Notes under the pieces: generated by a model | The model's input: the letters and a program-made list of their open reading frames with translations, nothing else | What the model was told of the DNA's origin: nothing | Databases searched by the model: none | Part shown: in pieces, positions 410 through 50,034 of the stretch | Position numbering within the stretch: position 1 is the stretch's first letter | How the letters are laid out: each line of letters opens with the position of its first letter | Made by a program: the position numbers and the translations under genes | Source: a phage | Sequence record: NC_107631.1 | Reading direction: 5' to 3' (one strand) | DNA length: 50,078 nt

Positions 410-891
410 TAAATATAAGAGATGATTTTTTATATGTTGATGGAATTATTTATTATAAGAGTAACACTAGATTTAAAAACCTTGCTGGGAGAGAGGCTGG
501 AAAGTTAGATAGGCTGGGTTACTGTAGGTTTTATGATGGGTTTAGGATGGTTTATAGACATAGATATGTATGGACTATTTTTAACGGCCAGATACCTGAA
601 GGTATGGAAATAGACCACATAAACCATATACCAGGTGATGATAGAATTGAAAATTTAAGACTTGTAACTAGAGAAGGGAACACAACAAATAGAAGTCTAA
701 ATAAAAATAACACATCTGGCATGAATTGCATATACCCTATGAAATCAGGCTCTTACAGGGTAAGAGTTAGATTTAGGGGTAAGACTTACGGAAGGTGCGT
801 TGACACTGTTAGTGAGGCTATAGATTTAAGAGATTCAATACTCATTGATCTTGGTTTTCATGAGAATCACGGATCGAATAGCATTTTTTGA
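406..891 (+). CDS. HNH homing endonuclease (HNH plus AP2-like domain)
   Basis: IDHINHIPGDDRIENLRLVTREGN motif; tail resembles AP2 domain (YRVRVRFRGKTYGRCVDTVSEA); visibly AT-rich codon usage versus neighbours. Confidence 0.8.
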   Translation: MINIRDDFLYVDGIIYYKSNTRFKNLAGREAGKLDRLGYCRFYDGFRMVYRHRYVWTIFNGQIPEGMEIDHINHIPGDDRIENLRLVTREGNTTNRSLNKNNTSGMNCIYPMKSGSYRVRVRFRGKTYGRCVDTVSEAIDLRDSILIDLGFHENHGSNSIF

Positions 892-950
892 AAAACGCGT
901 GTACCATTGGCGGTGTATCATTTACACCGTCAACTAAGGAGTTTATTGTG

Positions 951-4481: not shown

Positions 4482-4525
4482 ACTATGCCCGAATCCATTC
4501 GGGCGTTTTTATCAATTAGTGCGAT
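4482..4525 (-). promoter_or_regulatory. dyad-motif middle promoter (degenerate site)
   Basis: TCGCAC-TAA-TTGATAA on minus strand; CATAGT hexamer 28 nt downstream, inside inverted repeat GCCCGAATGGATTCGGGC. Confidence 0.45.
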
Positions 4526-5667
4526 CCTGTCATTTCTGGACGATAGATGAAGCGACCTATTTCCCCAAACTGCTTATCGTAAACAATTACAGCCGCCTGG
4601 CGATATGAGCGCCACCCTCCGCGCGCTGCGTATGCGTCTTTCGCGCCTAACTGACCGTGCACTTCATCAATACCTAACGAGTGTTCAGTGATTGTCTGAT
4701 GATGCCAGTGACCGCTATGAGTATACACATACTTACTCTCTCCGAAGTCTGCACGGAAGTCTGCCGCCATCGCTGCAAGTCGCGTGTCTGCCTTTTTCAT
4801 AGTGTGCCCGTGAGTGTATCCCAATAAGGTGTTTCCCCAGCGAGTCTTATGCAGAATCATAGGACTAACGTCAACGAATACTCGCGGCTCGTCTTCATAA
4901 TATGCAGACATTGCAGCTCGCAGCCAAATCATCCCAGACTGATCGTGGTTCCCTTCGATAACCTGGACCTCGACTTCTTTGTGTTTCATAAGCATTTTGT
5001 CGATGGCGCGACGCACCGAACGAATCGCTACATGCACCAATTTCGCATATCGTGAATCCTGATCTAGAACGTGACCACTTGCCGGGGTAACAGCGTCAAG
5101 GCCGTCAGAGTGAAGGAAGTCGCCGCCGATTAACAGAACAGCCTTCTCTGCGTTCGGCGCAATATCGATCGCGTAATTAAAGAAGTCGCTAAGCACTTTT
5201 TCCGCTACGTCGGTGGAATAGTTCTCACCGCATTCATGCTTATGAGCAAGCGCGCCAATATGAAGATCGAATACCGGATAGAGTGCCAGCTTACCCATCG
5301 CCGTAGTAAGCCCTTGTGAGGTTAGTAGTTCAGTTGGCTTTGCTCGAGGCAGGTCTTCACAGAATGCAATACGCGCCGCTTCCATCATTGCCGCAATCTT
5401 CTCACGGTCCTGATCGGTCTTAACCCAGCGAACTACCTCGGTCCCATCTCCGCGAATCATCGTTGATGTACCTTTTACCATGAATCCTTCCGGCACGTTT
5501 TTAGCAACATGCTCGTTACCGTGGAAGTGGCCTTCTTTTGCAAGTTTTGCGTGACGCGCCTCGACAGTGCGAATGTGCATACCGTACTTTTCCGCGATCT
5601 CGCGAAGTGTAAGTCCGTTCATGCGCTCTTCGACAAGTTGTTCGGTAGTGATTTTAGCTTGTGACAT
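4516..5667 (-). CDS. calcineurin-like metallophosphoesterase with N-terminal HTH domain
   Basis: N-terminal HTH-like segment (LTLREIAEKYGMHIRTV); phosphoesterase motifs DLH, GGDFLHSDG, GNHD, GHT. Confidence 0.7.
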   Translation of the reverse strand: MSQAKITTEQLVEERMNGLTLREIAEKYGMHIRTVEARHAKLAKEGHFHGNEHVAKNVPEGFMVKGTSTMIRGDGTEVVRWVKTDQDREKIAAMMEAARIAFCEDLPRAKPTELLTSQGLTTAMGKLALYPVFDLHIGALAHKHECGENYSTDVAEKVLSDFFNYAIDIAPNAEKAVLLIGGDFLHSDGLDAVTPASGHVLDQDSRYAKLVHVAIRSVRRAIDKMLMKHKEVEVQVIEGNHDQSGMIWLRAAMSAYYEDEPRVFVDVSPMILHKTRWGNTLLGYTHGHTMKKADTRLAAMAADFRADFGESKYVYTHSGHWHHQTITEHSLGIDEVHGQLGAKDAYAARGGWRSYRQAAVIVYDKQFGEIGRFIYRPEMTGSH

Positions 5668-6147: not shown

Positions 6148-6250
6148 CCTTTATATCGAAATATTTTGCTATTAGTGCTATATCGTCTGAGATTCCGCAT
6201 TCCTTCGCGTGCTCCCACACTTCGCGCTTACCTTGTTTTTTTATCAGCAT
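5978..6250 (-). CDS. hypothetical protein
   Basis: ATG preceded by GGAGA at about 9 nt; basic C-terminus. Confidence 0.4.
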   Translation of the reverse strand: MLIKKQGKREVWEHAKECGISDDIALIAKYFDIKDVSIISNGKISFMEDMPRKMHRVPATPSLEFYREEGKRIERERKNAKNNKPSRLKH

Positions 6251-6469: not shown

Positions 6470-6513
6470 ACTATACCCGACTTTCGCCGGGTAGTTTTAG
6501 CAATTAGTGCTGA
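6470..6513 (-). promoter_or_regulatory. dyad-motif middle promoter
   Basis: CAGCAC-TAA-TTGCTAA then TATAGT 28 nt downstream inside inverted repeat ACCCGGCGAAAGTCGGGT. Confidence 0.5.
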
Positions 6514-7492: not shown

Positions 7493-7536
7493 ATAATGCC
7501 AGATTCCATCCCGGCAGTTTTAACAAGAAGTGCTAT
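7493..7536 (-). promoter_or_regulatory. dyad-motif middle promoter upstream of dam
   Basis: ATAGCAC-TTC-TTGTTAA then CATTAT/TATTAT 28 nt downstream. Confidence 0.5.
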
Positions 7537-7949
7537 TTCATCATTTCGTAAATTGCGATCTTGAATTGCCCGAATCCGTATGCGACGGCAGAGAAGCCGC
7601 CACGCTCCCGGACCTTTTGGAGAAATTCCCTTTGCTTGTCGCTGACTGGTGACGCCTTTCCTTTTCCTGACTTATTAACCCGCTTAAGTTCGATTGCTGC
7701 AAACGGGTATCGTGAGTTAACACCAATCAGGATAACAAAGTCTGACACTCCTTTAAGTAATCCGGCCTGCTCATCCCTGAGCGCCGATGTGATTGTTTTT
7801 TCACCTTCATTGACAGTGTGCCAAAATAGAAGGTGCGGGAAGTTGTATTTCAGCCAGGACACGCAATCTACCTGGTGCGCGTCCTCTTTCCGTGTATCGC
7901 TGGGATCTCTCTCGTAAAATTCTAAATAATCACCTTTGTCTGTAATCAT
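7533..7949 (-). CDS. VRR-NUC domain nuclease
   Basis: PD-(D/E)XK-like core (GVSDFVIL..ELK); sits immediately downstream of the helicase, a common pairing; GGAGGA RBS. Confidence 0.65.
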   Translation of the reverse strand: MITDKGDYLEFYERDPSDTRKEDAHQVDCVSWLKYNFPHLLFWHTVNEGEKTITSALRDEQAGLLKGVSDFVILIGVNSRYPFAAIELKRVNKSGKGKASPVSDKQREFLQKVRERGGFSAVAYGFGQFKIAIYEMMK

Positions 7950-9958
7950 TCCGGGATATCCTCCATACCGAAGTCTTTACGTGAAATAATATCTTCTTTC
8001 TTCTGGTTGCGACGATGAGTTACGCGCACCGGGTGAGCAATATGATGTGAGTATTGCAAAATCTTGATGGCGTTCTTCATTCCGATAAAGTAGCGGCGCA
8101 TTTTAGGATCTGACACATGAGGTAATACACCTTTCGTTTTCCATAGCGTACCGCAAATCTTAGAGTCAGACTCGGGGAAGAATTTTTCATACGCCTTGAA
8201 CTCATCACCATCGTCGTTAATCAGAGTGTATTTGTATATTATACCTTTCTGGTTTTTGGTTAGCGTAACCTCAAAATTCTTTACTTCATACCAGTCATTC
8301 TTAGTGTACGCCTTACCGGATAACTTCAGGTTAGGATCGACAAGAGAAACATCACAACAACGACAGACTCGCGCAACAACATCATTCTCTGCACCGCATC
8401 CTTTAACAAGGATTTTCCCGGTTCGCTCGTCAACCTGGTCCTCACAAATCTGAGAAGTCCAGAAATGATCGCAACGCTCACCATCAATGACATTAACGCA
8501 TCGTCGAGCATAGAAGCTATTTACGCAACCGCATTTCGGACACGTTTTCGGGTCTTTTCCGTTTTCAAAACGCTTTTGGAATTGTGCCTGCTCAAGTATC
8601 GGATCGAAATAAAGCTGACCCAACTCATCCATCGTACCTGCGAAATCCCATACCAGATGGTCCTGCTTAACCATTCCCTCAGCAACCTGCCAAGATTTAA
8701 GCAGACGCATACCCCTACCCAAAAGTTGAATTAACAGTGTGAGCGACCCTATCTTGCGGAGTATGACACTGAAATCCCAATTTGGAACGTTAACGCCAGT
8801 AGTGAGCGCCATTACCTGAAAGGTGTATTTAATTTTTCCGGCCCTTACATCGTCAAGAATCTTCTTGCGCGCTTTGTTGTCTGTGTCGCCAGTGATGATT
8901 GCATAGGTACTTCCAGGAGGAAGTGCAGCCGCCGCCTCTTTGCAGTGACGCACCCCGGCGCATGTAATCAGTACCGCGTTACGCTCTTCAGCCTTTTTGG
9001 CAACCATTTGCATGATTCGCTGAGTAAGAGATTTATCATGAAGGATCTCATCTTCCATTGCCTTCATATCTTTCTCTGTAAAGTCCTGTACCCCATCCTC
9101 GCTTGAAGCCTTGAATTTATCAAGATCGTAGTGAACTCCGTCCGTCGAACCGAATATAGTCGGCACAACAGAACCGAACTCAATAAGATAATTTGTGTCA
9201 ATATCAGTCACGCGCTCACGCCAGAATCCAAGAGCTTTCGGATTCTCTACCAGAATAGGAACTACACCCCGAAATTCAGATCCAGTCATACCAAATATTC
9301 TGAGATCGTGACCGTGAACCTTTTTACAGCGCCGCATCATTTCCATGATTACGATCGTGTACTGACTGCGCTTAGTTCCAAGCAAAGGTTTTCCATCATT
9401 ACCAATCATGGGGATATCTCCGTCCATGATAACCTTCCCTTTCTCGCCCCTCATCTGCTCCATCGTTTCCTTGCCTTCGATGGCTTGCGCAAGGTCTTCC
9501 CAATCCACCTGGTGACATTCGTCGATCCCAATTACATGCGGTACGAAATCAGCTAACTCATTGTCGAGGCCATTTGCAACAGTACCCTCTGAGCCAACCA
9601 CGATCGGAAAGTAGCAGGACTTGATTCCAAGTGACGCTGAGAAGATGGAGTTCGTTACCCCGAAGTTGTCGATCTCTTCGCTATCCTGATCGACAATCTC
9701 ACCCTGACGAGCCAGGACAAGCATTTTTAAGCCCATTTTCTGACACTGCTTTGCCACCATAGCGAAGATGATTGTCTTACCTGCGGATACAGACGCTTTA
9801 ACGAAGAATGGATGCTCGTAATTTGATAGGCGTTTCGCGATCTCGGCATAAGCAACAACCTGGTACGGATAAGGAACAACCTCACCAACAGTAAATCGCT
9901 CCTGAGTTCTCTTTATATAGTCATCGCCAAGTAATGCAATCTGTTTTTTAATGTTCAT
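7946..9958 (-). CDS. SF2 DNA helicase (DEAH-type) with C-terminal zinc-ribbon
   Basis: Walker A-like SAGKT, motif II IGIDECHQ, C-terminal CPKCGC..C..C cluster; start moved to ATG at Met3 because track start is GTG. Confidence 0.8.
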   Translation of the reverse strand: MNIKKQIALLGDDYIKRTQERFTVGEVVPYPYQVVAYAEIAKRLSNYEHPFFVKASVSAGKTIIFAMVAKQCQKMGLKMLVLARQGEIVDQDSEEIDNFGVTNSIFSASLGIKSCYFPIVVGSEGTVANGLDNELADFVPHVIGIDECHQVDWEDLAQAIEGKETMEQMRGEKGKVIMDGDIPMIGNDGKPLLGTKRSQYTIVIMEMMRRCKKVHGHDLRIFGMTGSEFRGVVPILVENPKALGFWRERVTDIDTNYLIEFGSVVPTIFGSTDGVHYDLDKFKASSEDGVQDFTEKDMKAMEDEILHDKSLTQRIMQMVAKKAEERNAVLITCAGVRHCKEAAAALPPGSTYAIITGDTDNKARKKILDDVRAGKIKYTFQVMALTTGVNVPNWDFSVILRKIGSLTLLIQLLGRGMRLLKSWQVAEGMVKQDHLVWDFAGTMDELGQLYFDPILEQAQFQKRFENGKDPKTCPKCGCVNSFYARRCVNVIDGERCDHFWTSQICEDQVDERTGKILVKGCGAENDVVARVCRCCDVSLVDPNLKLSGKAYTKNDWYEVKNFEVTLTKNQKGIIYKYTLINDDGDEFKAYEKFFPESDSKICGTLWKTKGVLPHVSDPKMRRYFIGMKNAIKILQYSHHIAHPVRVTHRRNQKKEDIISRKDFGMEDIPE

Positions 9959-9977
9959 TGTCACGGCTATTAATCCT

Positions 9978-10006
9978 TTGAATCGTTGTAACGTTTACGC
10001 TATAAT
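9978..10006 (+). promoter_or_regulatory. strong sigma70 early promoter for the HTH regulator gene
   Basis: TTGAAT-N17-TATAAT. Confidence 0.6.
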
Positions 10007-10045
10007 ACACGGCATACAGTAAACGTTTTTAGCAAAAAGTGCTAT
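10002..10045 (-). promoter_or_regulatory. dyad-motif promoter driving the helicase operon, overlapping the divergent early promoter
   Basis: Dyad TTAGCAA-AAA-GTGCTAT (ATAGCAC-TTT-TTGCTAA on minus) with TATTAT 28 nt downstream on the minus strand; the same dyad lies in the 5'UTR of the plus-strand transcript. Confidence 0.5.
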
Positions 10046-10057
10046 AGGAGAATTAAG

Positions 10058-10510
10058 ATGAGTATTCAACGTATCGCAGAGTCAACTGGTGAAATCGATA
10101 AACGTCACATCAATGGTAACAACGGAACACGACGCGGTAAAGATAAAAAGCCACGACAGCGCTGCGGATTCTATATTCATAAAGAAGAAACACGCGCAGG
10201 ATTGCGAGCACGACTTGATGCGCTTATCGAATATTATGGTGGCCCTGCGGCCTGCGCAAAGGCTCTAAAAGTTAGCAATCAGACGGTGCAAGGCTGGAAA
10301 GAACGCAATATGATTTCATGGCAAGGTGCTGAAGCTGCGCATCGTGCTTACCGCCGACAGGGGTGTAAAGGGTTTAGGGCCGCATGGTTGCGATTCGACC
10401 TGAAGTTTGACGGTAACGGCAAGTGCATTGAGAAGCGATGCAAGAACAAGAAGTTTATGCGAGTGGTGAAGAAGGAAGATATCGGGACGACCAATAGCAT
10501 TTTTAGTTAA
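10058..10510 (+). CDS. HTH DNA-binding protein, candidate transcriptional regulator
   Basis: Cro/C1-type HTH signature (AKALKVSNQTVQGW); basic protein; RBS AGGAG. Confidence 0.6.
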   Translation: MSIQRIAESTGEIDKRHINGNNGTRRGKDKKPRQRCGFYIHKEETRAGLRARLDALIEYYGGPAACAKALKVSNQTVQGWKERNMISWQGAEAAHRAYRRQGCKGFRAAWLRFDLKFDGNGKCIEKRCKNKKFMRVVKKEDIGTTNSIFS

Positions 10511-10517
10511 AACAAAC

Positions 10518-10556
10518 GACGCGTAGCGGGTTAATATCCTTCTACGCGTTTTTTAT
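10518..10556 (+). terminator. intrinsic terminator
   Basis: GACGCGTAG-loop-CTACGCGT followed by TTTTTTATTTT. Confidence 0.7.
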
Positions 10557-10571
10557 TTTGGAGATCTGGAA

Positions 10572-11535: not shown

Positions 11536-11564
11536 TTGCAAGGCAGGTATCACAATGATAAAAT
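11536..11564 (+). promoter_or_regulatory. sigma70 promoter for the tail-fibre gene
   Basis: TTGCAA-N17-TAAAAT; predicted transcript starts at the dyad motif. Confidence 0.5.
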
Positions 11565-11570
11565 CTGTGC

Positions 11571-11587
11571 TTAGCAATTCGTGCTAT
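11571..11587 (+). promoter_or_regulatory. dyad element in 5'UTR next to RBS
   Basis: TTAGCAA-TTC-GTGCTAT, 6 nt before AAGGAG. Confidence 0.6.
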
Positions 11588-14612: not shown

Positions 14613-14686
14613 CTTTACTTCTCCTGATTGGTGTATGAGGTGCATTATAACACCTCATTAATTATTTGTTTAGCTATTTGTGCCGT

Positions 14687-15782: not shown

Positions 15783-15810
15783 ATTATAGCCATTAACAGC
15801 GTTTAGTCAA
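15783..15810 (-). promoter_or_regulatory. strong sigma70 promoter for the recombination operon
   Basis: On minus strand TTGACT-N16-TATAAT. Confidence 0.55.
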
Positions 15811-17548: not shown

Positions 17549-17566
17549 CGAGAGATGCCCTTGATA

Positions 17567-20986: not shown

Positions 20987-21033
20987 GATGTTTACCTTTT
21001 TGTGCTATTTATCGGTGAACCCATTATACAGGC

Positions 21034-27640: not shown

Positions 27641-27657
27641 ATAGCACTTTTTGTTAA
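27641..27657 (-). promoter_or_regulatory. dyad element immediately upstream of RBS
   Basis: TTAACAA-AAA-GTGCTAT on the coding strand, directly abutting CAACCAATCAGGAG. Confidence 0.5.
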
Positions 27658-27700
27658 AAGTTAAGTGAATAAAGTTGATAGGATGATTTTACAGAAATGA

Positions 27701-27726
27701 ATAAGGGGGCGCAAGCCCCCTATGGA
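27701..27726 (-). terminator. intrinsic terminator/attenuator
   Basis: GGGGGCTTGCGCCCCC hairpin followed by TTATT on minus strand. Confidence 0.5.
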
Positions 27727-27732
27727 TAGGAT

Positions 27733-30339: not shown

Positions 30340-30389
30340 TTTGATTTCTCCAATAAAAAAAGGGACTAACTAAGTTAGCCCCTATAATA

Positions 30390-31349: not shown

Positions 31350-31400
31350 GATTACTTCTCCGTAGTTAATAAAAAAGCCGTGATTATGTTCACGGCTTCA

Positions 31401-31429
31401 ATAATAGCACTTTTTGTTAAAGCGTCAAA
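31401..31429 (-). promoter_or_regulatory. sigma70 promoter with embedded dyad element, upstream of the major capsid gene
   Basis: On minus strand TTTGAC-N17-TATTAT with TG extension; the spacer contains TTAACAA-AAA-GTGCTAT; followed by hairpin AAGCCGTG..CACGGCTT and T-run. Confidence 0.5.
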
Positions 31430-35939: not shown

Positions 35940-35966
35940 TTGACAGCCCTAATTATATCTCATTTA

Positions 35967-38649: not shown

Positions 38650-38666
38650 TTAACATTTAGTGCTAT
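38650..38666 (-). promoter_or_regulatory. dyad element just upstream of the putative TerS RBS
   Basis: TTAACAT-TTA-GTGCTAT on plus strand; TGGTAAAAT extended -10-like sequence adjacent on minus strand. Confidence 0.4.
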
Positions 38667-38945: not shown

Positions 38946-39131
38946 TTAAATCTCCTTGATTAATTCAATATTTATTTTGTGAGTGTCAAAGTTAGCGCCG
39001 GAAAGTTTTTTTGCTTTCGTGATGGCTTCTGCCTGACTGGTTGCTGATAATTCAGTTTCGAAAGATTGCTTGCACGACTGGCAAAACATTCCCATCTTTC
39101 GAATAATTAATTTAACTTTGAATCGCTTCAT
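38946..39131 (-). CDS. hypothetical small protein
   Basis: 61 aa; contains a C-x-x-C pair. Confidence 0.4.
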   Translation of the reverse strand: MKRFKVKLIIRKMGMFCQSCKQSFETELSATSQAEAITKAKKLSGANFDTHKINIELIKEI

Positions 39132-39871: not shown

Positions 39872-40215
39872 TATTTACCTCTCCCAAATGAAAAATTAAC
39901 ACCTAAAACCTGATTGCAAACCGACTCCATGTATCGCAACTGGTATTGAGCAACCTTTGAAGGACTTAATTCATCGGTAAATAAATCCTCAACATTTATT
40001 TCTTTTTTATGCTTGCGCTTCCATGCCTTGATGATATTTGGCAGGATTCGCTCGCTCTTCCAGGCTGCAAACTCAGATTGATTCGTTGATGCCGGGGTAA
40101 ACTGCCTTTCGATCTGGTTAAGAAGTTCGGCGGCAGCGCCTTTTACGTGAAGCTGTTCACCAATCGTGTCCAAGAGTTCGCGAGCTTGTTTCTCTGACAA
40201 GTTAATCGTAATCAT
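39871..40215 (-). CDS. hypothetical protein
   Basis: 114-aa ORF, translationally coupled. Confidence 0.45.
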   Translation of the reverse strand: MITINLSEKQARELLDTIGEQLHVKGAAAELLNQIERQFTPASTNQSEFAAWKSERILPNIIKAWKRKHKKEINVEDLFTDELSPSKVAQYQLRYMESVCNQVLGVNFSFGRGK

Positions 40216-40421: not shown

Positions 40422-40453
40422 TTTGATTTTCTCTCTTCGTTGTCGATGAGGTA

Positions 40454-40497
40454 ACTATATCAAATCACCCCATCGACGTTTTAGCAATTCGTGCTAT
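40454..40497 (-). promoter_or_regulatory. dyad-motif middle promoter
   Basis: ATAGCAC-GAA-TTGCTAA; TGaTATAGT extended -10 28 nt downstream inside inverted repeat GTCGATG..CATCGAC. Confidence 0.55.
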
Positions 40498-41066
40498 TTA
40501 TTGATGAACGTGGCGGCTATGTGCTGAGCGGTAATTTCTGGATGGCCTTCGACAGAAAAGAAGTCACATTCCTGATAACCGTTGACCCCAATCATATCGT
40601 CCAGGTAGATATAGTCTCGACTGTCATTATCGAAGTTGCAACCGTTGCGATGTATTCGACATAGCTTTACCTGGATATCACCTTCAATCATCTGCAATAT
40701 TTCATCTTTGAATCCACCATCAGTAAATACCGAAAGGGAGTGAGACTCTTTCACCTTGCTTTCCGCTCGCATACCGAAGAAGCGATTTCCGAACTGCGGC
40801 TTGATGACTTCCTCGCTAATCCAGATCATAAACTGGCGAGGGCTTTTACCGTTCAGGATTGATGCTGGCTCTTCTTTATATCGACGGTCCTCATACAAGA
40901 ACATGAAATACTCGTAGTTAGCTTCACCCAGGATTGCCCGGGCAATCTCAAACATTGGCGCTTTGAAGCTGCGCAAGGCTACGTGATCGTAAGTGTCAGC
41001 CAGGATGCATCCGATAGTGTCTTTTCCCGCGCCAGGTGCGCCGTTTAAAATGATAGCTGTTTTCAT
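40494..41066 (-). CDS. P-loop kinase, polynucleotide kinase-like
   Basis: Walker A ILNGAPGAGKDT resembling the T4 Pnk N-terminal kinase domain; AGGGAG RBS. Confidence 0.55.
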   Translation of the reverse strand: MKTAIILNGAPGAGKDTIGCILADTYDHVALRSFKAPMFEIARAILGEANYEYFMFLYEDRRYKEEPASILNGKSPRQFMIWISEEVIKPQFGNRFFGMRAESKVKESHSLSVFTDGGFKDEILQMIEGDIQVKLCRIHRNGCNFDNDSRDYIYLDDMIGVNGYQECDFFSVEGHPEITAQHIAATFINK

Positions 41067-41174
41067 GTTAGCATCTCCCTAAAAATAATTTTGCCACATT
41101 GATGATTGTGTGATTGATGATTAACAGGATGATAACCGTCAATACCGGATGTGCTGCAATAAATTCGTACAGGT

Positions 41175-41708
41175 TCATTCATCTACCCCGTGGGATTTTA
41201 AATGATCGTGAACGTTATCACCATAGTCAACTACAGCGTAAGTGGTTATCCCAAGCGATCTGAATAATGGAATAATTTGCGGCGAGTCATCCCAAGCCGC
41301 CAGAATGTTATCAATGCCGATCGCGCGCACCGCCTCTTCTTTCATTACCGTGTCTTTGCGGTTGTCGGTGTGCGGTCGCATGACTAAGTAATCATATCGA
41401 GCGCCGTGATGCTTAAGCCATAACTCAGATGCGTAACGCACCTCATCACTTCGCCCGGTTAAAATTATTACATGATATCCAGCGGCAAACATAGAGTTCA
41501 TCACATCGATCGTGCTTTGGATAGGGTTGTCAAATATTGCCGCGCGGTTAAACTCGGACCAGCTTTCAGTCAAGTGCAAATCCTTTGTCGGCAGCAGGTG
41601 AAGTCGACCAGAACCATCGCTAAGTGTCCCGTCAAAGTCAAAGATTGCCACGCGGCGCGTGCCGAGAAACAGGTTGATTGTCTGGCCCCAAATTGTGATT
41701 TTATCCAT
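41175..41708 (-). CDS. HAD-family phosphatase, T4 Pnk 3'-phosphatase domain-like
   Basis: VAIFDFDGTLSD and NP..GYHVIILTGRS match the T4 Pnk phosphatase motifs FDVDGTL and GYQIVVVSGRES. Confidence 0.65.
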   Translation of the reverse strand: MDKITIWGQTINLFLGTRRVAIFDFDGTLSDGSGRLHLLPTKDLHLTESWSEFNRAAIFDNPIQSTIDVMNSMFAAGYHVIILTGRSDEVRYASELWLKHHGARYDYLVMRPHTDNRKDTVMKEEAVRAIGIDNILAAWDDSPQIIPLFRSLGITTYAVVDYGDNVHDHLKSHGVDE

Positions 41709-41748
41709 GATTTATTCCTCTGATTGGTTGCTTAACTCAACGAAGGGC

Positions 41749-41792
41749 ATTCTAACAAATACCCTTGAGCAAGTTTTAGCAATTCGTGCTAT
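41749..41792 (-). promoter_or_regulatory. dyad-motif middle promoter
   Basis: ATAGCAC-GAA-TTGCTAA then TGtTAGAAT 28 nt downstream inside inverted repeat AAGGG..CCCTT. Confidence 0.55.
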
Positions 41793-42286
41793 TACCAGTA
41801 ATCAACCTCGTAGTCAGCCCAGGCGTCAAAATCACTTTGGCAGAATGTTCCGCTATAATTTTCCATCATTTCATCGATCAGGAAGTAGCATGACTCACCG
41901 TTACGATAGAAGTATGAATCAGCAACGTTACGCGCCCATCGCCCGGCATCTTTCTTGCTCATCTTCCAGTGTTTCATTGCAATTTTCTTGAATGCGCGAA
42001 CAACGCGTTTGCGGATCTTGACATGCTTGTACACCGCATTGCAGCCGTAGGCCATATATTCGTTATTTCCAAGATTCTGCATGATGTAAGGATTAACCTC
42101 TTTCGATGTGATTTCCAGATCGCCATCATCCAGCTTGTCATCTTGAATCTTAGCTGTAATGTAGTGACCTTTGAACATACCTAAGCCATGCAGAGTGTAC
42201 TCGTCGTTAGGTGCTTCAATACAGATTAGGTGTTTCATTCGTGCTTCCTCTTTTGTTGGTGTAGGGGAATCATAGCGCATTCCCAT
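41792..42286 (-). CDS. hypothetical protein
   Basis: 164-aa ORF with Trp/Tyr-rich C-terminus. Confidence 0.5.
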   Translation of the reverse strand: MGMRYDSPTPTKEEARMKHLICIEAPNDEYTLHGLGMFKGHYITAKIQDDKLDDGDLEITSKEVNPYIMQNLGNNEYMAYGCNAVYKHVKIRKRVVRAFKKIAMKHWKMSKKDAGRWARNVADSYFYRNGESCYFLIDEMMENYSGTFCQSDFDAWADYEVDYW

Positions 42287-42312
42287 TGATAGGTTTTAGC
42301 AATTCGTGCTAT
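42269..42312 (-). promoter_or_regulatory. dyad-motif middle promoter
   Basis: ATAGCAC-GAA-TTGCTAA then TATGAT 28 nt downstream inside inverted repeat GGGAAT..ATTCCC. Confidence 0.55.
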
Positions 42313-42671
42313 TCGTTTTAATAGTGATGCAAAAATAATTTTTTAAGCACGTCACTACGCGCGCTGAATCGACTTGTGGGAGCCTTAAAATTTCGTGGGT
42401 CAATTGCACTGCCGACACATCAGATTTGTAGTAGTGGGCGATTCTGGAGCTATTTGGGCGCATTCCTTCCACTGCGTCGCGTGCTGCATCTTCTGCTGTC
42501 ATGATAGTAGCCATAAAACACCCTTAAGAGATAGAGTCAGAAACAGGAGGCAGAATAACAACTCATGAAATGATGGAGGTTCGTTTTTCCAGTTCTTAAA
42601 GTCAGGCATAAAGCTATTCATATTCACCTCATAAAAATAGGGAACCGCTCAGGAACGATTCCCACTTTAAT

Positions 42672-43328
42672 TTAAACTACGAAAAACAGCACGATAAGAG
42701 AAATAAGAAGCACGGTAGCCATAGCCAGGTTCGCCAGATTATCAATGTCCTTGTTGGTCAGCTTAGGCTTGACTTTACCATCAACTTCGGTTGGCTTAAC
42801 GCTGTGAATCTTACCCTGTTCGATGCGGAAACCGCCCTTGATTCGACTGGTATTAAATTTCTGCTTCTTCTTGCCGAACGTTGCAAACTTAGTGCCGCCA
42901 CTATTCCAGCGAAGACCCTCGCCGTTGTGAGTTACGGTTGCAATGCGGTTGCGACCCGTGTCGTCGGTAATTACAGCTGCGTGCTTTGCGTTCTCGGTCG
43001 GTACATCGTAGATATTGCCAACGGTAAATTTTTTGGTGTTATCGCTGATACATTCGAATTTCATAGTTTTTACCTCTTTATTATGCAGTTGGTTGATTGC
43101 TTCGATTACGTCGTTAAATTTAACACCATCCACGATTCGATGGAAGATATATTTTGAACTACCGCCATATGGCAGGAAAAGCTCCTGGTATTCGTGACGC
43201 CGCACAACGTTCACGTTACTACCGAACTCATCAACTATAACGAAGTTGTCGTCATTGACGCGAGCGCCTTCGTAGATTTTGCCGTACTTAAAACCAGATC
43301 CGATACTTGATACGCATTCAAATTTCAT
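42672..43328 (-). CDS. membrane-anchored protein with tandem duplicated domain
   Basis: Two repeats each beginning MKFEC(V/I)S...G(K/N)IY; C-terminal transmembrane anchor. Confidence 0.5.
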   Translation of the reverse strand: MKFECVSSIGSGFKYGKIYEGARVNDDNFVIVDEFGSNVNVVRRHEYQELFLPYGGSSKYIFHRIVDGVKFNDVIEAINQLHNKEVKTMKFECISDNTKKFTVGNIYDVPTENAKHAAVITDDTGRNRIATVTHNGEGLRWNSGGTKFATFGKKKQKFNTSRIKGGFRIEQGKIHSVKPTEVDGKVKPKLTNKDIDNLANLAMATVLLISLIVLFFVV

Positions 43329-43612
43329 GGTCTAACCTTCCTGTAAGGTTTGATTGATAACATCACGTATTGCGTGAAGTCGCATTCTTGCTCGTCATAC
43401 CCGCGATTGATGTACGGAGTCACGTCGGTAACATCGGATACCCTGGCGTGAACCTCCCAACCGGTAAACTCATCGCGATCGAACTCTCGTAGCTCAAGGA
43501 TATCACCAACCTGGAAGTTTCTGTCATTGACTCGGAACTCTGCCGTTTTGGTTCCGTTCATTACACCAATGAAATGTACCGGGGCGATTTTTAACTTATG
43601 AGTTTTGCTCAT
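43325..43612 (-). CDS. small beta-barrel protein, possibly ASCH/DUF3850-like
   Basis: 95 aa; weak pattern resemblance only; translationally coupled to the downstream gene. Confidence 0.35.
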   Translation of the reverse strand: MSKTHKLKIAPVHFIGVMNGTKTAEFRVNDRNFQVGDILELREFDRDEFTGWEVHARVSDVTDVTPYINRGYDEQECDFTQYVMLSIKPYRKVRP

Positions 43613-43802
43613 CTTTCTTTACCTCGAATGTCACGTTCCAGAATTTATTGCCGCATGAATGATAGATTACGTCATGAGATGTTAGTTCGTGCAATGCGTG
43701 CCCGACAATATCCATTCGGTCATTCGGCGTCAGTCCGCGAAGCGATTCACGAAGGCGTGAGGCCTTGTCGTAAATCTGCCACTGAGTTAGTCGTGTAGCC
43801 AT
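43596..43802 (-). CDS. hypothetical protein
   Basis: Start moved to Met15, directly after the conserved CAACCAATCAGAGGAAT cassette. Confidence 0.45.
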   Translation of the reverse strand: MATRLTQWQIYDKASRLRESLRGLTPNDRMDIVGHALHELTSHDVIYHSCGNKFWNVTFEVKKDEQNS

Positions 43803-43842
43803 AGCTGATTCCTCTGATTGGTTGCCATGCTTCAATAAGGCC

Positions 43843-43886
43843 ACTATATCAAATGGCCTTGCGGAAGGTTTAGCAATTCGTGCTAT
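43843..43886 (-). promoter_or_regulatory. dyad-motif middle promoter (cassette family B)
   Basis: ATAGCAC-GAA-TTGCTAA then TGaTATAGT 28 nt downstream inside inverted repeat GGCCA..TGGCC. Confidence 0.55.
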
Positions 43887-43949
43887 TTAAAACTTTCTTG
43901 ATGCGATTGCGATAAAACTGCATTACGTGCTCATTATGCCAATTGCTCA

Positions 43950-44435
43950 TTATTTCGCCTCGTAGCGTACAAGCGTTCCGCGCTTAATGCTGATTTCACC
44001 TGATACCGTCTTGTGTTTGAAGCTGCCATAATGCAATAGAAGAGTGATGATATCGTCGTGCACTTCAATAGTTTTCGGCGTAGCGGTGATTTCAAGCCAG
44101 GATTTATCATCAAGCTGAACTCCTTTTAGCGTTGCGCTAAGTGGCATGTTCTCGATTTGAGTGCATTGTAGCATCGGCTTGATTTCTGGCTTTGCTGCGT
44201 GAAAGATGGCTCGACCAGTCTTCCAGCCAGGCCCGACACTCTCAACATAATACGGAAGAGATGGGATGTTATCAGGATTGTGATTGTTATGAAGCTCTAT
44301 GAGATTACCAACAATCGACGGATGGCACTCATTGAATGACGAATCAGTTGCACGATCTTTGCTGTGGCAGGTTATTTTACCGCAGCTAATAGTGTTAAAA
44401 ACTACAGGGAATTTAATCTCGTTTAATTTCAACAT
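43950..44435 (-). CDS. hypothetical protein
   Basis: 161-aa ORF served by its own dyad-motif promoter. Confidence 0.5.
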   Translation of the reverse strand: MLKLNEIKFPVVFNTISCGKITCHSKDRATDSSFNECHPSIVGNLIELHNNHNPDNIPSLPYYVESVGPGWKTGRAIFHAAKPEIKPMLQCTQIENMPLSATLKGVQLDDKSWLEITATPKTIEVHDDIITLLLHYGSFKHKTVSGEISIKRGTLVRYEAK

Positions 44436-44465
44436 AATGACTTCCTCTTAGTGGTCGATGCGGGG

Positions 44466-44509
44466 ATTATACCAGTCAGGACAAATCCCCTTTTAACAAT
44501 TCGTGCTAT
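44466..44509 (-). promoter_or_regulatory. dyad-motif middle promoter
   Basis: ATAGCAC-GAA-TTGTTAA then TGgTATAAT 28 nt downstream inside inverted repeat GGGGATT..AATCCCC. Confidence 0.6.
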
Positions 44510-44976
44510 TTGGTAAGATACTTCACGTTACTACCAGCAACCTCATTCCAGCCGTCATCAAAGAACACGCTGTAGCACGTTGCTGAGCGCTGTCGAATCT
44601 TCGATACGGTTCGCCACACTTTACGCCCCGAGTAACCAGTCAGCACACGCATCCCTGGCAATAACTCACCCGACTTTCTCACCTTAATAGCCACATCAGA
44701 ATCAAGCTCGAACGACTCAAGATAGACCGGGTTAATCATATTCCACATACGGCGCTCTTCGTGCTCATCTGCCCACTCGCAGCCATTGTTCGTCTTGATA
44801 GATCCAATGAAGCAACCCAGTTTTTCAGTAAGTGAGTCTGCGCGGTATGAGTTGATATCGATGACCGTGTAGTGGCTGTACATATGCCAGTGCGATCCGG
44901 TTTTGTGCTCAAACGCGAAGAATGACATTTCGCCATCAATCTCATCTTTAGCCAGAAATACGGTAATTGTCGCCAT
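44506..44976 (-). CDS. hypothetical protein
   Basis: 156-aa ORF. Confidence 0.5.
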   Translation of the reverse strand: MATITVFLAKDEIDGEMSFFAFEHKTGSHWHMYSHYTVIDINSYRADSLTEKLGCFIGSIKTNNGCEWADEHEERRMWNMINPVYLESFELDSDVAIKVRKSGELLPGMRVLTGYSGRKVWRTVSKIRQRSATCYSVFFDDGWNEVAGSNVKYLTK

Positions 44977-44978
44977 GA

Positions 44979-45173
44979 TTAAGCCTCAGCAAAGTAAGTG
45001 TTAAAGCCTTTGAGTTTGTAGTCGCTACCTACGCGCACAACGTTCCAGGCAAGGCCCGAGTGATATGCAACCATATCCTCAAGGTCGATCGTGATTTCGG
45101 TTCCTTTCTTGAACAGACCCTTTTCATGAGTTGAGTCGCGCTGAACAACAACCACATCAATTTGAGTTTCCAT
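44979..45173 (-). CDS. hypothetical small protein
   Basis: Start moved to Met23, preceded by GAGGAAACGAAG, identical to the RBS of the gene at 46658..46828. Confidence 0.45.
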   Translation of the reverse strand: METQIDVVVVQRDSTHEKGLFKKGTEITIDLEDMVAYHSGLAWNVVRVGSDYKLKGFNTYFAEA

Positions 45174-45205
45174 CTTCGTTTCCTCTGTATCGTGTCGATG
45201 AGAAG

Positions 45206-45249
45206 ATAATACCCGATCCGCTCGATCGGGCTTTAACAAAAAGTGCTAT
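45206..45249 (-). promoter_or_regulatory. dyad-motif middle promoter (cassette family A)
   Basis: ATAGCAC-TTT-TTGTTAA then TATTAT 28 nt downstream after inverted repeat CCCGATC..GATCGGG. Confidence 0.55.
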
Positions 45250-46060
45250 TCCATTCGCTAATTTTTGGAGGCTTTACAGATTCAACACAGTTCTTCAATA
45301 TCGCACACCTTTCGGCAAGTATGTCTGATTTGCTGCCACCTTTGGAAAGGCATTGATCTACAGCTTGCTTAACGTCATCAGTATCAATCCACTTATCCTT
45401 GTGGATACTCCTCCTGCAAGCCTCAATTGTCACTACCTTATTTATGGCAAGGTACTTAGGAACGTTGCAAGCCAGGTTAGTGCTATCTGCTGAGTTTAGA
45501 GGGTAGTTACCTAAAACTCTTCCATCAAGCATCCTTAGCCCATGCAGTTTTACCTCAACATTAGATTCCTTAATGGCTGAAAAAGCCTCACTTATCCTTT
45601 GCTTCCACCTGGCGGATCTGACTGTTGCAAATTCTCCAGAAGATCCCATGCATACCCATTCCCATTTTTCACATAGACTTATCAGTCTGCTTATTGGCTC
45701 GTGCATATGCCACACCGGAGCTGCCTTACTCTTTAGATCTGAAGGCAACTGAGATATGAGCTTATCATTATCCTCGGCACTGCCAGTTATGTCATCCGGG
45801 ATAACAAAGAATCTCAATTTTGGGTTGTCAAACCAGTCAGGAAGGAAGTTGCAATAAAACTCTCTCCAGTCTTGATTCTTCCCGCTCTTCCACTTTGAGA
45901 ACGCCCCATTATCTATGCATACAGTGTCAGCCGCATCAAAGGCTAATTTTATCTGATCAGGTCGCTCGAATGATACGAATGCACCGCTTCCACGGTGCGC
46001 GATTCGTGCAATCCTTCCCCTATCTCCCCATATTGGAGATCCGTGAAAGTGAATTGTCAT
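45233..46060 (-). CDS. DpdA-like DNA-guanine transglycosylase (TGT family), putative
   Basis: Local matches to TGT catalytic motifs: CIDNGAFS vs LTDSGGFQ, FVIPDD vs MIFDEC, SADSTNLACNVP vs GIDMFDCVMP; overlaps the start of the transporter-like gene. Confidence 0.5.
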   Translation of the reverse strand: MTIHFHGSPIWGDRGRIARIAHRGSGAFVSFERPDQIKLAFDAADTVCIDNGAFSKWKSGKNQDWREFYCNFLPDWFDNPKLRFFVIPDDITGSAEDNDKLISQLPSDLKSKAAPVWHMHEPISRLISLCEKWEWVCMGSSGEFATVRSARWKQRISEAFSAIKESNVEVKLHGLRMLDGRVLGNYPLNSADSTNLACNVPKYLAINKVVTIEACRRSIHKDKWIDTDDVKQAVDQCLSKGGSKSDILAERCAILKNCVESVKPPKISEWNSTFC

Positions 46061-46536
46061 AGTTTAAATTTCCTCATGATAGCTATGATTATAAATGCGC
46101 CAACTGTCTTAGCTGCGAATTGAGCTAATGAAACATCAATCATTATGCTTCCGAATGCTATCATTGGGAACGCCATAGAGTCAATTGCAGCCGACACTGT
46201 ATTTGCCGGGATTGATTTGCTGTAGAAGTCACCACGCTTCAACTTGAACGTTATGGCGCTACCAGTTCCAGCAAGGATTACTGATGATACTGATGCAACA
46301 GCTATCATTCCTGCACTGGGGTCTATAATCACTGTAGCAATCCCAGCTACAAAGCAAGCTAGCATCGAATACCAGAACCCAAAATTGTGCTGTATCTTGT
46401 CCCTGATAACCATGTCTGCTGATATGATTACGAGTGCATTGATTGGGGTTGACCACACCCCAAAGTACGCTACTGACAGGTTTGCTGCAACATACAGCAA
46501 AACAAATAATACAATCATTACTGATAATTTACGCAT
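46057..46536 (-). CDS. YhhQ/QueT-family (DUF165-like) 7-deazaguanine precursor transporter, putative
   Basis: About 6 predicted transmembrane helices; F-KLKRGDFYSKSIPANTVSAAIDSMAFPMIAF aligns with E. coli YhhQ FNRLRQSRRWWLAPTASTLFGNVSDTLAFFFIAF. Confidence 0.55.
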   Translation of the reverse strand: MRKLSVMIVLFVLLYVAANLSVAYFGVWSTPINALVIISADMVIRDKIQHNFGFWYSMLACFVAGIATVIIDPSAGMIAVASVSSVILAGTGSAITFKLKRGDFYSKSIPANTVSAAIDSMAFPMIAFGSIMIDVSLAQFAAKTVGAFIIIAIMRKFKL

Positions 46537-46657
46537 ACGGCCTCCGTGGAAAAGATTGGTAGGATCTGGATGTTTGGTCTAACCTGCCTGATTCTGCTTA
46601 CGATTGATTCATCACTTAGAGGATAAAACACACCATTTACGAGCCATCCTATCCTAA

Positions 46658-46828
46658 TCATTCGTCGATCTCTCCAATATACTTAGCCTCTTTCCACTGT
46701 GAGTATGCATCTTGCTCGCTGAACCCGTAGCCAGTAAAGCCACCTCCCTGGCACATGAACCGCTTAAATTTCATGATTCCTTTGTAGCTGTCGCCGCGGT
46801 CGGTGATTTTGCATTCTTCGTTAATCAT
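46658..46828 (-). CDS. hypothetical small protein (about 56 aa), not in ORF track
   Basis: ATG preceded by GAGGAAACGAAG; coordinates approximate. Confidence 0.4.
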   Translation of the reverse strand: MINEECKITDRGDSYKGIMKFKRFMCQGGGFTGYGFSEQDAYSQWKEAKYIGEIDE

Positions 46829-46859
46829 CTTCGTTTCCTCGTTCGTTGTCGATGGGATA

Positions 46860-46903
46860 ACTATACCAAGCTATCCCGATCCAGCTTTAACAAAAAGTGC
46901 TAT
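46860..46903 (-). promoter_or_regulatory. dyad-motif middle promoter (cassette family A)
   Basis: ATAGCAC-TTT-TTGTTAA then TGgTATAGT 28 nt downstream inside inverted repeat GGGATA..TATCCC. Confidence 0.55.
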
Positions 46904-47493: not shown

Positions 47494-47608
47494 ATCTTTC
47501 TCCTCATTTTCAATATACACCATGATTAACATGTAACACTGTGTCTCTAATCGTAGTGTTACACGGCGACACGCTTGTGTCAAGGCTTGCGAGCCGATTT
47601 TAAGCGTG

Positions 47609-47635
47609 GTTAATCGTGTTAATCGTGTTAATCGC
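47609..47635. repeat. tandem direct repeat (GTTAATCGT)x3
   Basis: Three consecutive 9-bp units in the divergent control region, next to GTGTTACA sites. Confidence 0.7.
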
Positions 47636-47699
47636 TTTTCCCATATAAATATGAGCCGATAAAACTACTGTATATATAAACATGAATATAATAACCAGA

Positions 47700-47830
47700 G
47701 CATCCAACGATTAACATAGTAGACACGCTATACATCCATATTACAAATAATAGTATCTATATATATAAATAAAAAAAACACTTATATATTATATATATAC
47801 ATATATCTATATGTATATTATAAGGCGTAA
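47700..47830. repeat. AT-rich low-complexity block with TATATATA runs
   Basis: Extended TA-rich sequence resembling the block at about 16060-16125. Confidence 0.6.
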
Positions 47831-47911
47831 TTTGGTGTAATTTTGTCTACGATTGCGATTTAGGCAAATCATATACATGGATTAACACACAATCAAGCGT
47901 AATCGTAATTG

Positions 47912-47928
47912 ATAGCACTTTTTGCTAA
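47912..47928 (+). promoter_or_regulatory. dyad element without an obvious -10 partner
   Basis: ATAGCAC-TTT-TTGCTAA; no -10-like hexamer at +28 on either strand. Confidence 0.4.
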
Positions 47929-48116: not shown

Positions 48117-48161
48117 ATAGCATTTTTCGCTAACGACTTGACCAGGTTGTCAGGGTATAGT
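48117..48161 (+). promoter_or_regulatory. dyad-motif promoter (degenerate) for the rightward early genes
   Basis: ATAGCAT-TTT-TCGCTAA then TATAGT about 29 nt downstream; followed by CAACCAATCAGGAG RBS cassette. Confidence 0.45.
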
Positions 48162-49331: not shown

Positions 49332-49471
49332 TTTATGTTCACACCTTTTATACAGGAAAGTTTAACAGCGTAAAAAATGTTCGCGTTTACGATAGTCACC
49401 AAAAAGCAATGATGCAGAGAGTAGTGCTAGGAGGAACAATCAAAGAGTGCAAAGTAATCTCTGAGTACTGA
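49328..49471 (+). CDS. hypothetical very small protein, not in ORF track
   Basis: ATG overlapping the previous stop (ATGA); coordinates approximate. Confidence 0.25.
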   Translation: MIYVHTFYTGKFNSVKNVRVYDSHQKAMMQRVVLGGTIKECKVISEY

Positions 49472-49515
49472 TAGCACAAATTGCTAAAGACACACACCGG
49501 GGAGTGAGTTATATT
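49471..49515 (+). promoter_or_regulatory. dyad-motif promoter
   Basis: ATAGCAC-AAA-TTGCTAA then TTATAT(T) 28-29 nt downstream inside inverted repeat GGGAGT..ACTCCC. Confidence 0.5.
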
Positions 49516-49990: not shown

Positions 49991-50034
49991 ATAGCACGAT
50001 TTGTTAATATTGCCGTAAGGTCATTTGATAAAGT
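49991..50034 (+). promoter_or_regulatory. dyad-motif promoter (cassette family B)
   Basis: ATAGCAC-GAT-TTGTTAA then TGaTAAAGT 28 nt downstream inside inverted repeat; the whole cassette is near-identical to the one at 43803..43886. Confidence 0.55.

Follow-up and report, generated by a model that had tools for sequence, protein, structure and literature searches.

The phage sequence NC_107631.1 contains many copies of a 17-bp dyad, ATAGCAC-N3-TTGCTAA, which in intergenic DNA is tied at a fixed distance to a sigma70-type -10 hexamer. The whole stretch of 50,078 nucleotides was analysed and is referred to below as the window; (+) and (-) denote its strands. The copies in the window and in its relatives support a family-wide class of predicted sigma70 promoters that lack a -35 box. 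We propose that a dimeric factor bound to the dyad at -42 would activate these promoters and would repress transcription where the dyad overlaps canonical promoters, a reading to which we assign a probability of roughly 0.55. BLAST comparisons with phage records identify the window as a T1-like coliphage, a Tunavirus (Drexlerviridae), and its length is close to that of one genome; its structural genes are 95% identical to those of coliphage T1, and its early region is 86-91% identical to T1-like phages. The gene content of the window was taken over from the T1 record.

With up to two mismatches allowed, 20 matches to the dyad were found in the window against 0.37 expected, the maximum in 100 shuffles being two. 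A preliminary description of this DNA had put the number at about 20 and had located the copies correctly. It had also listed 14 copies as promoter-type, and every one of those spans was found to consist of a dyad and a -10 hexamer of the A2/T6 type (A in the second and T in the sixth position). Its list was incomplete, however, as a position weight matrix scan of the window revealed weaker extra copies at 878-894(+), 10494-10510(+), 14670-14686(-) and 20992-21008(-), of which the first two and the degenerate third are also promoter-type, bringing the total to 17. The promoter-type copies are intergenic and oriented like the gene strand, and seven copies are reversed or lie nearer to the gene. 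Where the start codon could be called reliably, the promoter-type motif begins 70-84 nt ahead of it; the automated start call failed for the copy at 43870 and was ambiguous for that at 14670, and neither is counted in this range.

The element is 17-19 bp long (A-T-A-G-C-A-C-w-w-w-T-T-G-y-T-A-A-A) and is built of two 5-bp arms, TAGCA and TGCTA, with centres 10 bp apart. In a column profile of 326 copies in exact register, the motif positions are nearly invariant and the central triplet is A/T-rich, with C never present. The copies form subgroups according to this triplet (AAA, TTT or GAA), in the window as in phage TLS.

In the 17 promoter-type copies of the window, the -10 hexamer begins 21 nt past the motif, or 20 or 22 nt past it in three of them. 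The dyad centre is 30 nt ahead of the first base of the hexamer, which corresponds to -42 if transcription starts 7 nt past the hexamer; this start site was predicted from a conserved CA only, and the hexamer was set as -12 to -7. The single register was rightly recognised in the preliminary description, but its count of 13 exact copies and one deviating copy was not: the gap is 21 nt in 12 of its 14 copies and 22 nt in the two at 48117 and 49471, for both of which its own spans measure 45 nt and not 44 nt as for the others. Two of its hexamers begin with C (CATAGT at 4482-4487 and CATTAT at 7493-7498), and the TG extension, said to be frequent, is less general, since in the family-wide profile G is present at -14 in 74% but T at -15 in only 22% of the copies. 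The predicted position of the dyad near -42 and the missing -35 were borne out and extend to the whole phage family.

This extension was first seen in seven genomes or loci, namely the window, T1, TLS, Klebsiella phage KLPN1, Vibrio phage Vc1 and two metagenome contigs. The best -10 of each copy was sought over 40 positions, with a uniform expectation of 2.5% per position, and was found at the same offset in 65 of 103 copies and within 1 nt of it in ten more, the geometry being kept in TLS, KLPN1, Vc1 and the metagenome relatives. In 80 further loci, recovered via the regulator protein described below, the best -10 occurs at the exact offset in 297 of 481 distinct copies (62%) and within +/-1 nt of it in 369 (77%). 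In the family-wide profile, the 21-nt spacer has a near-zero information content and a constant length. A spacer that varies freely in sequence at constant length suggests that the dyad and the -10 are functionally coupled and must be read together, which is the strongest argument for the dyad as a promoter element.

The same profile gives AAAacn as the consensus at -35 to -30, and hence no -35 is present. The -10 that follows the spacer has A at -11, T at -7 and often G at -14, and C is found at -1 in 72% and A at +1 in 79% of the copies. Seven nucleotides past the hexamer there is usually a CA, followed by a conserved leader, CATCGA(A/C)AACGAA or ..AACCAATCAGGAG, a ribosome-binding site (RBS) and the start codon. 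The early region shows no enrichment of canonical -35/-10 pairs (26 versus 26.8 expected). We infer from this arrangement that the dyad is a class II activator site. The promoter class postulated in the preliminary description thus stood, and its other suggestion, an alternative recognition element read for example by a new sigma factor, found no support: among 28 early, replication and lysis proteins, Pfam found no sigma factor, RNA polymerase, MotA or AsiA domain and no helix-turn-helix (HTH) domain besides that of the regulator, although remote homologues may escape such a search.

Several known elements were also compared with the dyad and rejected. A displaced -35 formed by TTGCTA was ruled out because a spacer of 21-22 bp is too long. 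A sigma54 promoter (TGGCAC-N5-TTGCW) was discarded, as the dyad reads TAGCAC-N3-TTGC, with AG in place of GG and a spacing that is 2 nt short, and an UP element, which is an A/T-only tract between -40 and -60, does not accommodate the invariant G/C at -47, -46, -44 and -38. The sites of IHF, Fis, OxyR/LysR, NtrC and sigma32, compared by eye on the basis of their consensus sequences, fail on spacing or on key bases.

A second property of these promoters, which the preliminary description did not mention, is a hairpin that overlaps the -10. Over the 45 nt past the motif, the fold has a mean z of -3.3 relative to shuffled sequences, with z < -2 in 62 of 83 cassettes. The sense strand tolerates G-U pairs, and its RNA therefore folds more stably than the antisense RNA (mean -12.9 versus -10.7 kcal/mol, Wilcoxon p = 2e-7). 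The stem sequences vary between cassettes, and within groups of related cassettes compensatory changes were found at 27 of 79 consensus pairs; in the 46860 cassette, for instance, the hairpin is GGGATA/TATCCC where its T1 orthologue reads GGGGTA/TACCCC, a compensatory exchange of G-C for A-T in the window. The hairpin lies either between the motif and the -10, the T-rich -10 region then forming its tail, or around the -10, which is then in the loop with the predicted start in the 3' arm. In the gap between the regulator and primase genes it is a full terminator with a T-run, whose stem differs among the T1, TLS and Webervirus lineages and whose loop always holds the -10.

The cassette hairpins are the features that are annotated as rho-independent terminators in the records of T1 (NC_005833; for example 38973-39001, 39998-40024, 41980-42007 and 35930-35971) and SA30RD. 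As in an intrinsic terminator, the stem-loop is G+C-rich and selected at the RNA level; a U-tract is evident in the T-run at 10494 and in cassettes with TTTGTTATTAT after the stem. The simplest reading of these sequences is that the cassette would be a compact terminator-promoter unit. In the late region, at 31350-31400, 30340-30412 and 17550-17592 (-), promoter-like -35/-10 pairs are likewise accompanied within a few nucleotides by a terminator hairpin with a T-run and by an RBS, and as the predicted start is inside the 5' arm there, the full terminator would be present in read-through transcripts only.

Because the element stands directly 5' of hairpins that behave as RNA structures, it might itself act in RNA. 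It would then form a boxB-like hairpin (UAGCA-CNNNU-UGCUA) in read-through transcripts, ahead of each intergenic hairpin, and would attract a factor acting in antitermination, processing or translation, for example via the arginine-rich N-terminus of the regulator. The 5-bp arms and 5-nt loop suit such a structure, the common C-to-T variant of the right arm preserves a G-U pair, and some copies are located 5-17 nt ahead of start codons. However, the stem never covaries, the degenerate copies at 4509, 6165 and 6497 lose pairs without compensation, and the reversed TTGTTAA copies (27641 and 31404) give an A-C mismatch in the sense RNA. As an RNA signal, the element would moreover be upstream of the predicted start of its own promoter, and its exact spacing to the -10 would be left unexplained. 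We consider a role in RNA very improbable.

Some copies of the dyad occupy positions typical of operators, which had also been overlooked in the preliminary description. A canonical promoter at 31401..31428 (-), TTGACG-N16-TATTAT, precedes the major capsid gene, and a dyad in the opposite orientation (31404-31420) fills its spacer; a terminator hairpin begins 3 nt past the -10, and this layout is kept in T1, TLS and KLPN1. The 621-aa tail-fibre gene has a canonical promoter, TTGCAA-N17-TAAAAT, in 11536..11587 (+) with a dyad (11571-11587) at approximately +1 to +17, and a similar layout was found in a divergent metagenome phage. A third canonical sigma70 promoter, the strong TTGAAT-N17-TATAAT at 9978..10006 (+), serves the regulator gene, and here the dyad (10029-10045) is placed between the predicted start and the RBS. 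In this 93-bp helicase-regulator gap, a single dyad is therefore at -42 of the helicase promoter and at the same time 3' of the start of the regulator promoter, and the two opposing -10 boxes overlap by 5 bp. The layout of the gap is present in all six lineages examined, including TLS, KLPN1, Vc1 and two metagenome phages, and the regulator promoter corresponds to P57 of the TLS paper (PMC11447400).

Three further copies, which belong to the terS, J-like tail-fibre and tape-measure-chaperone genes, are found just past -10-like boxes that follow terminators. The first, at 38650..38666 (-), is 17 nt ahead of the terS start codon, overlaps the 3' end of the -10-like sequence TGgTAAAAT and has no -10 at the canonical offset. 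The second, at 20992..21008 (-), is 5 nt ahead of the start codon of tail-fibre gene J and ~14 nt past a TATAAT located after a terminator; the right half of this dyad also serves as the Shine-Dalgarno sequence. The third, at 27641..27657 (+), is in reverse orientation between the -10-like TGTAAAAT and the RBS of the tape-measure-chaperone gene. The operator-type copies thus vary in orientation and distance, which fits a symmetric DNA-binding dimer acting as repressor or roadblock. The reversed copy at 27641 also has a TAGGAT (TAAGAT in T1) at the canonical 21-nt offset in antisense direction, with a bidirectional terminator ~40-50 nt away, and a short antisense RNA from 27641-27730 is possible.

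As several copies are in clearly repressing positions (spacer, +1 and 5' untranslated region), the dyad could be a pure repressor operator, stoperator-like or for shut-off. The promoters would then be constitutive -10 or extended -10 promoters that are turned off later by a phage protein, and the constant spacing would have been inherited from the duplication of one cassette. The -10 hexamers are indeed near consensus with a common G at -14, Cro-fold proteins, to which the candidate binder described below belongs, are classically repressors, and a stoperator-like role was proposed by the authors of the TLS paper (PMC11447400). A repressor, however, needs no exact 21-nt spacing, and the spacer has repeatedly acquired a completely new sequence, whereas its length was kept in 62-77% of the 481 copies across subfamilies. 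Furthermore, as no copy has a -35 and T at -15 is rare, most of these promoters should be weak unaided, and the phage is virulent, without a lysogeny module. Repression as the sole function of the dyad therefore seems unlikely to us.

The best candidate for the protein that binds the dyad is encoded at 10058..10510 (+). It is the only DNA-binding protein that could be recognised, is the 150-aa homologue of T1 gp23 and has a Cro-fold HTH core and an N-terminal arm. Both this protein and that encoded at 4516..5667 had been described as HTH proteins; the former is indeed a Cro-fold regulator according to Pfam (a weak P22_Cro match), PHROG (phrog_2856, 'transcriptional regulator', 2e-76) and Foldseek, whereas the latter is a DNA-repair exonuclease (phrog_704, E 5e-157). 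An Lrp/AsnC-like identity of the regulator, suspected from its size, was rejected because Pfam gives a Cro-type HTH. Its AlphaFold model is confident at residues 38-140, with a predicted local distance difference test score (pLDDT) above 90 in the core, and in Foldseek it comes closest to two all-alpha Cro proteins, those of Xfaso 1 and N15 (template modelling score ~0.7 on the target); this result holds at the level of the fold (Cro-like) and carries no information on specificity. All-alpha Cro proteins bind as dimers to 17-bp pseudo-palindromes.

The regulator gene is core to the family (824 phage records), and the dyad is always present between it and the divergent helicase gene. Among viral contigs, multiple copies of the motif were detected only on contigs of Drexlerviridae size (~33-52 kb); accordingly, no motif-bearing phage that lacks the regulator turned up, and the search is neutral as to the binder. 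Conservation within the regulator is highest in its N-terminal arm, residues 1-37 (RIAxSTGEIDKRxxNGNNGTRRGKDKKPR), with 12 invariant residues in 27 sequences. This arm, which is of low confidence in the AlphaFold model, could be a reading head or a surface that contacts the polymerase. We put the odds that the regulator is the binder at somewhat less than even.

In the mechanism that we propose, a dimeric DNA-binding protein on the dyad would recruit or stabilise host RNA polymerase at ~17 early, replication and lysis promoters that on their own would be weak. At dyads located in or just 3' of canonical promoters, namely those of the capsid gene, the tail-fibre gene and the Cro-fold regulator's own gene, this protein would act as a repressor. 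Transcription from one of the few sigma70 promoters that work unaided would let the regulator appear first; it would then turn on the dyad promoters and be autoregulated. The whole hairpin would be present in read-through transcripts, in some of them together with a U-tract, while the cassette's own transcripts would begin inside or past the hairpin and so escape it.

Several points weigh against this mechanism. Approximately 25%-40% of the promoters are TG-extended and most -10s are near consensus, so that some promoters may fire unaided. The dyad is asymmetric, its ATAGCAC half being nearly invariant and the other half showing C/T variation. The U-tract is absent from most of the hairpins that enclose a -10, and termination is thus secure for a subset only. 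Repression of capsid and tail genes by the activator of the early genes requires a release step that is unexplained; release of the late genes through titration of the factor by replicated genomes is speculation. In the full-text literature that was searched, without the T1 (2004) and Rtp (2006) genome papers, no transcript map or binding study was found for any member of the Drexlerviridae. Lastly, the recognition helix of the regulator is diverse between lineages (NQTVQGW, QQTVNQW, LKTVWGW, VRLTNAY), whereas the DNA motif is invariant. A search for co-variation of regulator and motif gave no positive signal, with 17 recognition-helix variants for one motif, which is mild evidence against read-out by the HTH. 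A variable helix and an invariant motif imply that the DNA is read by the N-terminal arm or else by another protein.

The variable recognition helix makes a conserved host factor a live alternative. A conserved and abundant enterobacterial regulator, for which Lrp is the nearest by consensus, would activate the dyad promoters from DNA entry and hold the late promoters off, until the ~25 sites on each replicating genome titrate its fixed pool and flip the programme. The 13-minute life cycle suits early promoters that are independent of a phage product. A conserved target would also fit the invariance of the motif, given that the core proteins of these phages are 45-60% identical and that their hosts range from Escherichia and Klebsiella to Vibrio. 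TAGCAC-www-TTGCTA agrees at 11 of 15 positions with the E. coli Lrp consensus yAGhAwATTwTdCTr, which is degenerate, and has the AGnAn-www-nTnCT skeleton of a second Lrp consensus, AGAATwwwATTCT (consensus sequences as quoted in PMC5554404). However, the conserved C at -44, the A at -50 and the A-run are not features of Lrp sites, and Lrp normally works via several cooperative upstream sites.

A scan of 100,044 bacterial genomes for exact copies revealed an enterobacterial excess, mostly due to one conserved coding site (..WWRDEILANSAI..). Some Enterobacteriaceae have exact copies in intergenic DNA, ATAGCACNNNTTGCTAAAA being found in the yeeZ-plaP gap, in a fimbrial-like region and in the bluF-ycgZ gap (L092/L093, L141/L153 and L163); between L092 and L093 the motif is retained and the flanks have diverged. 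Nevertheless, 10 of the 16 enterobacterial matches are one orthologous coding sequence, so that no host regulon emerges, and a host binder would leave the conserved regulator gene beside the dyad unexplained. In our view it is improbable that a host protein runs the programme in this way.

The proposed activation and repression from the dyad could be part of a more comprehensive scheme, in which one dyad and one factor would make up the whole temporal switch. The ~17 early, replication and lysis promoters would be turned on and the capsid, tail and regulator genes down; the late switch would follow from titration on the ~25 sites of each new genome, the hairpins would insulate each cassette, and the factor would be either the Cro-fold protein, reading through its N-terminal arm, or a conserved host protein. 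That all these elements hold jointly appears rather doubtful.

The individual cassettes are as follows. On the (-) strand, the cassette at 40454..40497 has the dyad ATAGCACGAATTGCTAA (40481-40497), a 21-nt spacer and the -10 TATAGT (40454-40459), with a predicted +1 at ~40447 (CA) and an 11-bp hairpin around the -10 (~40442-40477). The next one, at 41749..41792 (-), combines a perfect dyad with a TG-extended -10, TAGAAT, inside a hairpin and precedes the polynucleotide kinase gene. Perfect dyads are also present at 42269..42312 (-), where the -10 is TATGAT and the upstream open reading frame (ORF) stops at the TAA of the dyad, and at 43843..43886 (-), where a TG-extended TATAGT is in the loop of an AAGGCCA/TGGCCTT hairpin. 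The cassette at 44466..44509 (-) has a TTGTTAA half, a TG-extended TATAAT and a GGGGAT/ATCCCC hairpin. At 45206..45249 (-), a CCCGATC/GATCGGG hairpin, flagged also by a simple terminator scan, is located between the dyad and the -10 TATTAT, and at 46860..46903 (-) the -10 is TATAGT. Upstream ORFs often end inside the dyad, via the TAG of aTAGcac or the TAA of ttgcTAA (42296, 45233, 44506), so that the dyad offers stops in two frames and gene ends adjoin the next promoter.

The first promoter of the rightward early arm is the cassette at 48117..48161 (+), with a weaker dyad, ATAGCATTTTTCGCTAA, a 22-nt spacer and the -10 TATAGT. The cassette at 49471..49515 (+) likewise has a 22-nt spacer, together with the -10 TATATT and a GGGAGT/ACTCCC hairpin around it, and that at 49991..50034 (+) has a TG followed by the -10 TAAAGT and an AAGGTCA/TGGCCTT hairpin with a wobble of the G-U type on the sense strand. 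A perfect dyad at 47912..47928 (+), in the AT-rich divergent control region, has no -10 at the canonical offset. The adjacent stretch at 47600-47900, between the divergent early arms, is AT-rich and contains three tandem TTAATCGTG units (~47606-47632) along with long TATATA runs; an origin, a pac region and an early control region are all conceivable roles for it.

In the left part of the window, the cassette at 878..921 (+) belongs to a DUF3987 helicase-like gene and has the dyad ATAGCATTTTTTGAAAA and the -10 TATCAT in the loop of an 11-bp hairpin. The lysis-gene block is preceded by the cassette at 4482..4525 (-), with a degenerate dyad, ATCGCACTAATTGATAA, a GCCCGAAT/ATTCGGGC hairpin and the -10 CATAGT. 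At 6470..6513 (-), the hairpin ACCCGGC-GAAA-GTCGGGT is immediately 5' of the -10 TATAGT, and the cassette at 7493..7536 (-), with the -10 CATTAT, precedes the Dam methylase gene; the orthologous hairpins of both are annotated as terminators in T1. The status of a weak copy at 6165..6181 (-), ATAGCACTAATAGCAAA, is ambiguous, as it is 17 nt ahead of a possible ATG (6147) and has a TAGCAT at the canonical offset. The helicase gene (7946..9964) is served by the cassette at 10002..10045 (-), with the -10 TATTAT at 10002-10007, and the primase gene by that at 10494..10557 (+), in which the dyad is followed by the -10 TAATAT (10532-10537) and an RBS, the -10 being enclosed by a genuine intrinsic terminator, in the loop between ACGCGTAG and CTACGCGT, with a T-run.

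The degenerate cassette at 14644..14686 (-) precedes erf and consists of ACGGCACAAATAGCTAA, a 20-nt spacer and a TATAAT in a hairpin loop. This TATAAT falls 3' of the erf start implied by the ORF (ATG 14645), and T1 is annotated with an erf of the same length; in Vc1-like phages, erf starts 30 nt past the -10. Both the ORF in the window and the T1 annotation may place the start too far upstream. A strong canonical promoter without a dyad, TTGACT-N16-TATAAT at 15783-15810 (-), serves recE (exonuclease VIII). It corresponds to P51 of the TLS paper, has the same CATCG..AAAGGAG leader as the dyad cassettes and probably belongs to a very small set of immediate-early promoters.

The seven classical T phages include T1, whose relatives count among the commonest coliphages and Klebsiella phages used in therapy and encountered as fermentation contaminants. 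To our knowledge, standard tools find almost no promoters in T1-like phages, and these have no phage polymerase or sigma factor. The dyad as the upstream half of a -35-less promoter of fixed geometry would give a family-wide promoter map (~17 per genome), narrow the candidate regulators down to a few and offer a compact, portable design for a terminator-promoter cassette. If true, it would provide the missing regulatory logic of a model phage family.

The element itself has been described before. The 2024 re-annotation of TLS reported a 21-nt direct repeat, aaATAGCACnnnTTGnTAAAA, in 18 intergenic copies (DR1-DR18) along transcription, ~76 nt ahead of start codons, and noted it also in T1, Rtp and Rogue1 (PMC11447400). 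Its authors found only three sigma70 promoters in TLS, offered a stoperator, an enhancer site or an UP element as guesses and listed the function of the repeat as an open question (PMC11447400). The same consensus was recovered from TLS itself and from Table S1 of that paper, which is the only description of the repeat that was found in the full-text literature. Repeat and dyad are the same element, as they agree in consensus, intergenic position, orientation along transcription, distance to start codons and triplet subgroups. The TLS paper does not contain the fixed 21-nt link to the -10, the missing -35, the overlapping hairpins or the operator-type copies; the sequence element is thus known, and the predicted promoter role, the geometry, the cassette structure and the dual placement are new.

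The stoperators of mycobacteriophage L5 are similar in that a short site recurs many times in small gaps between genes, for the most part with the same orientation to transcription. However, they are 13-bp asymmetric sites of a lysogenic repressor, block elongation and do not stand in a constant relation to a -10. L5 is a temperate phage, whereas no repressor or integrase module is present in the gene content of the T1 record or in the window. The T1 genome paper, as cited in PMC11447400, describes 'transcriptons', modules flanked by rho-independent terminators. The hairpins past the dyad are the annotated terminators of T1, but here they overlap the -10 or the start of the next promoter, and most of them lack a U-tract.

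The middle promoters of T4, which rely on the MotA box and on sigma appropriation by AsiA, also belong to a lytic phage that redirects host sigma70 polymerase to many promoters combining a sigma70 -10 with a phage-specific box instead of a -35. The half-site TTGCTAA resembles TGCTT, the core of the MotA box. In T4, however, this box consists of one 9-bp element centred at -30 and separated by 11-13 bp from the -10, whereas here a 17-bp dyad ends 21 nt before the -10, and neither MotA nor AsiA domains were found by Pfam in the 28 proteins searched.

The comparison with class II promoters, such as those activated from -42 by lambda cI at OR2 (PRM) or from -41.5 by CRP and FNR, is complicated by ~17 copies per genome instead of one or a few, by a virulent phage without a lysogeny switch, and by a candidate protein with an additional invariant N-terminal arm and a C-terminal extension, activation here being predicted from sequence only. 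Nonetheless, the dyad resembles these sites in being a 17-bp pseudo-palindrome at a predicted -42 that abuts or replaces a missing -35, ahead of a -10 of the sigma70 type, and its candidate binder has a fold of the Cro/cI type. As in those systems, the same operator is used elsewhere for predicted repression, including that of the regulator's own gene.

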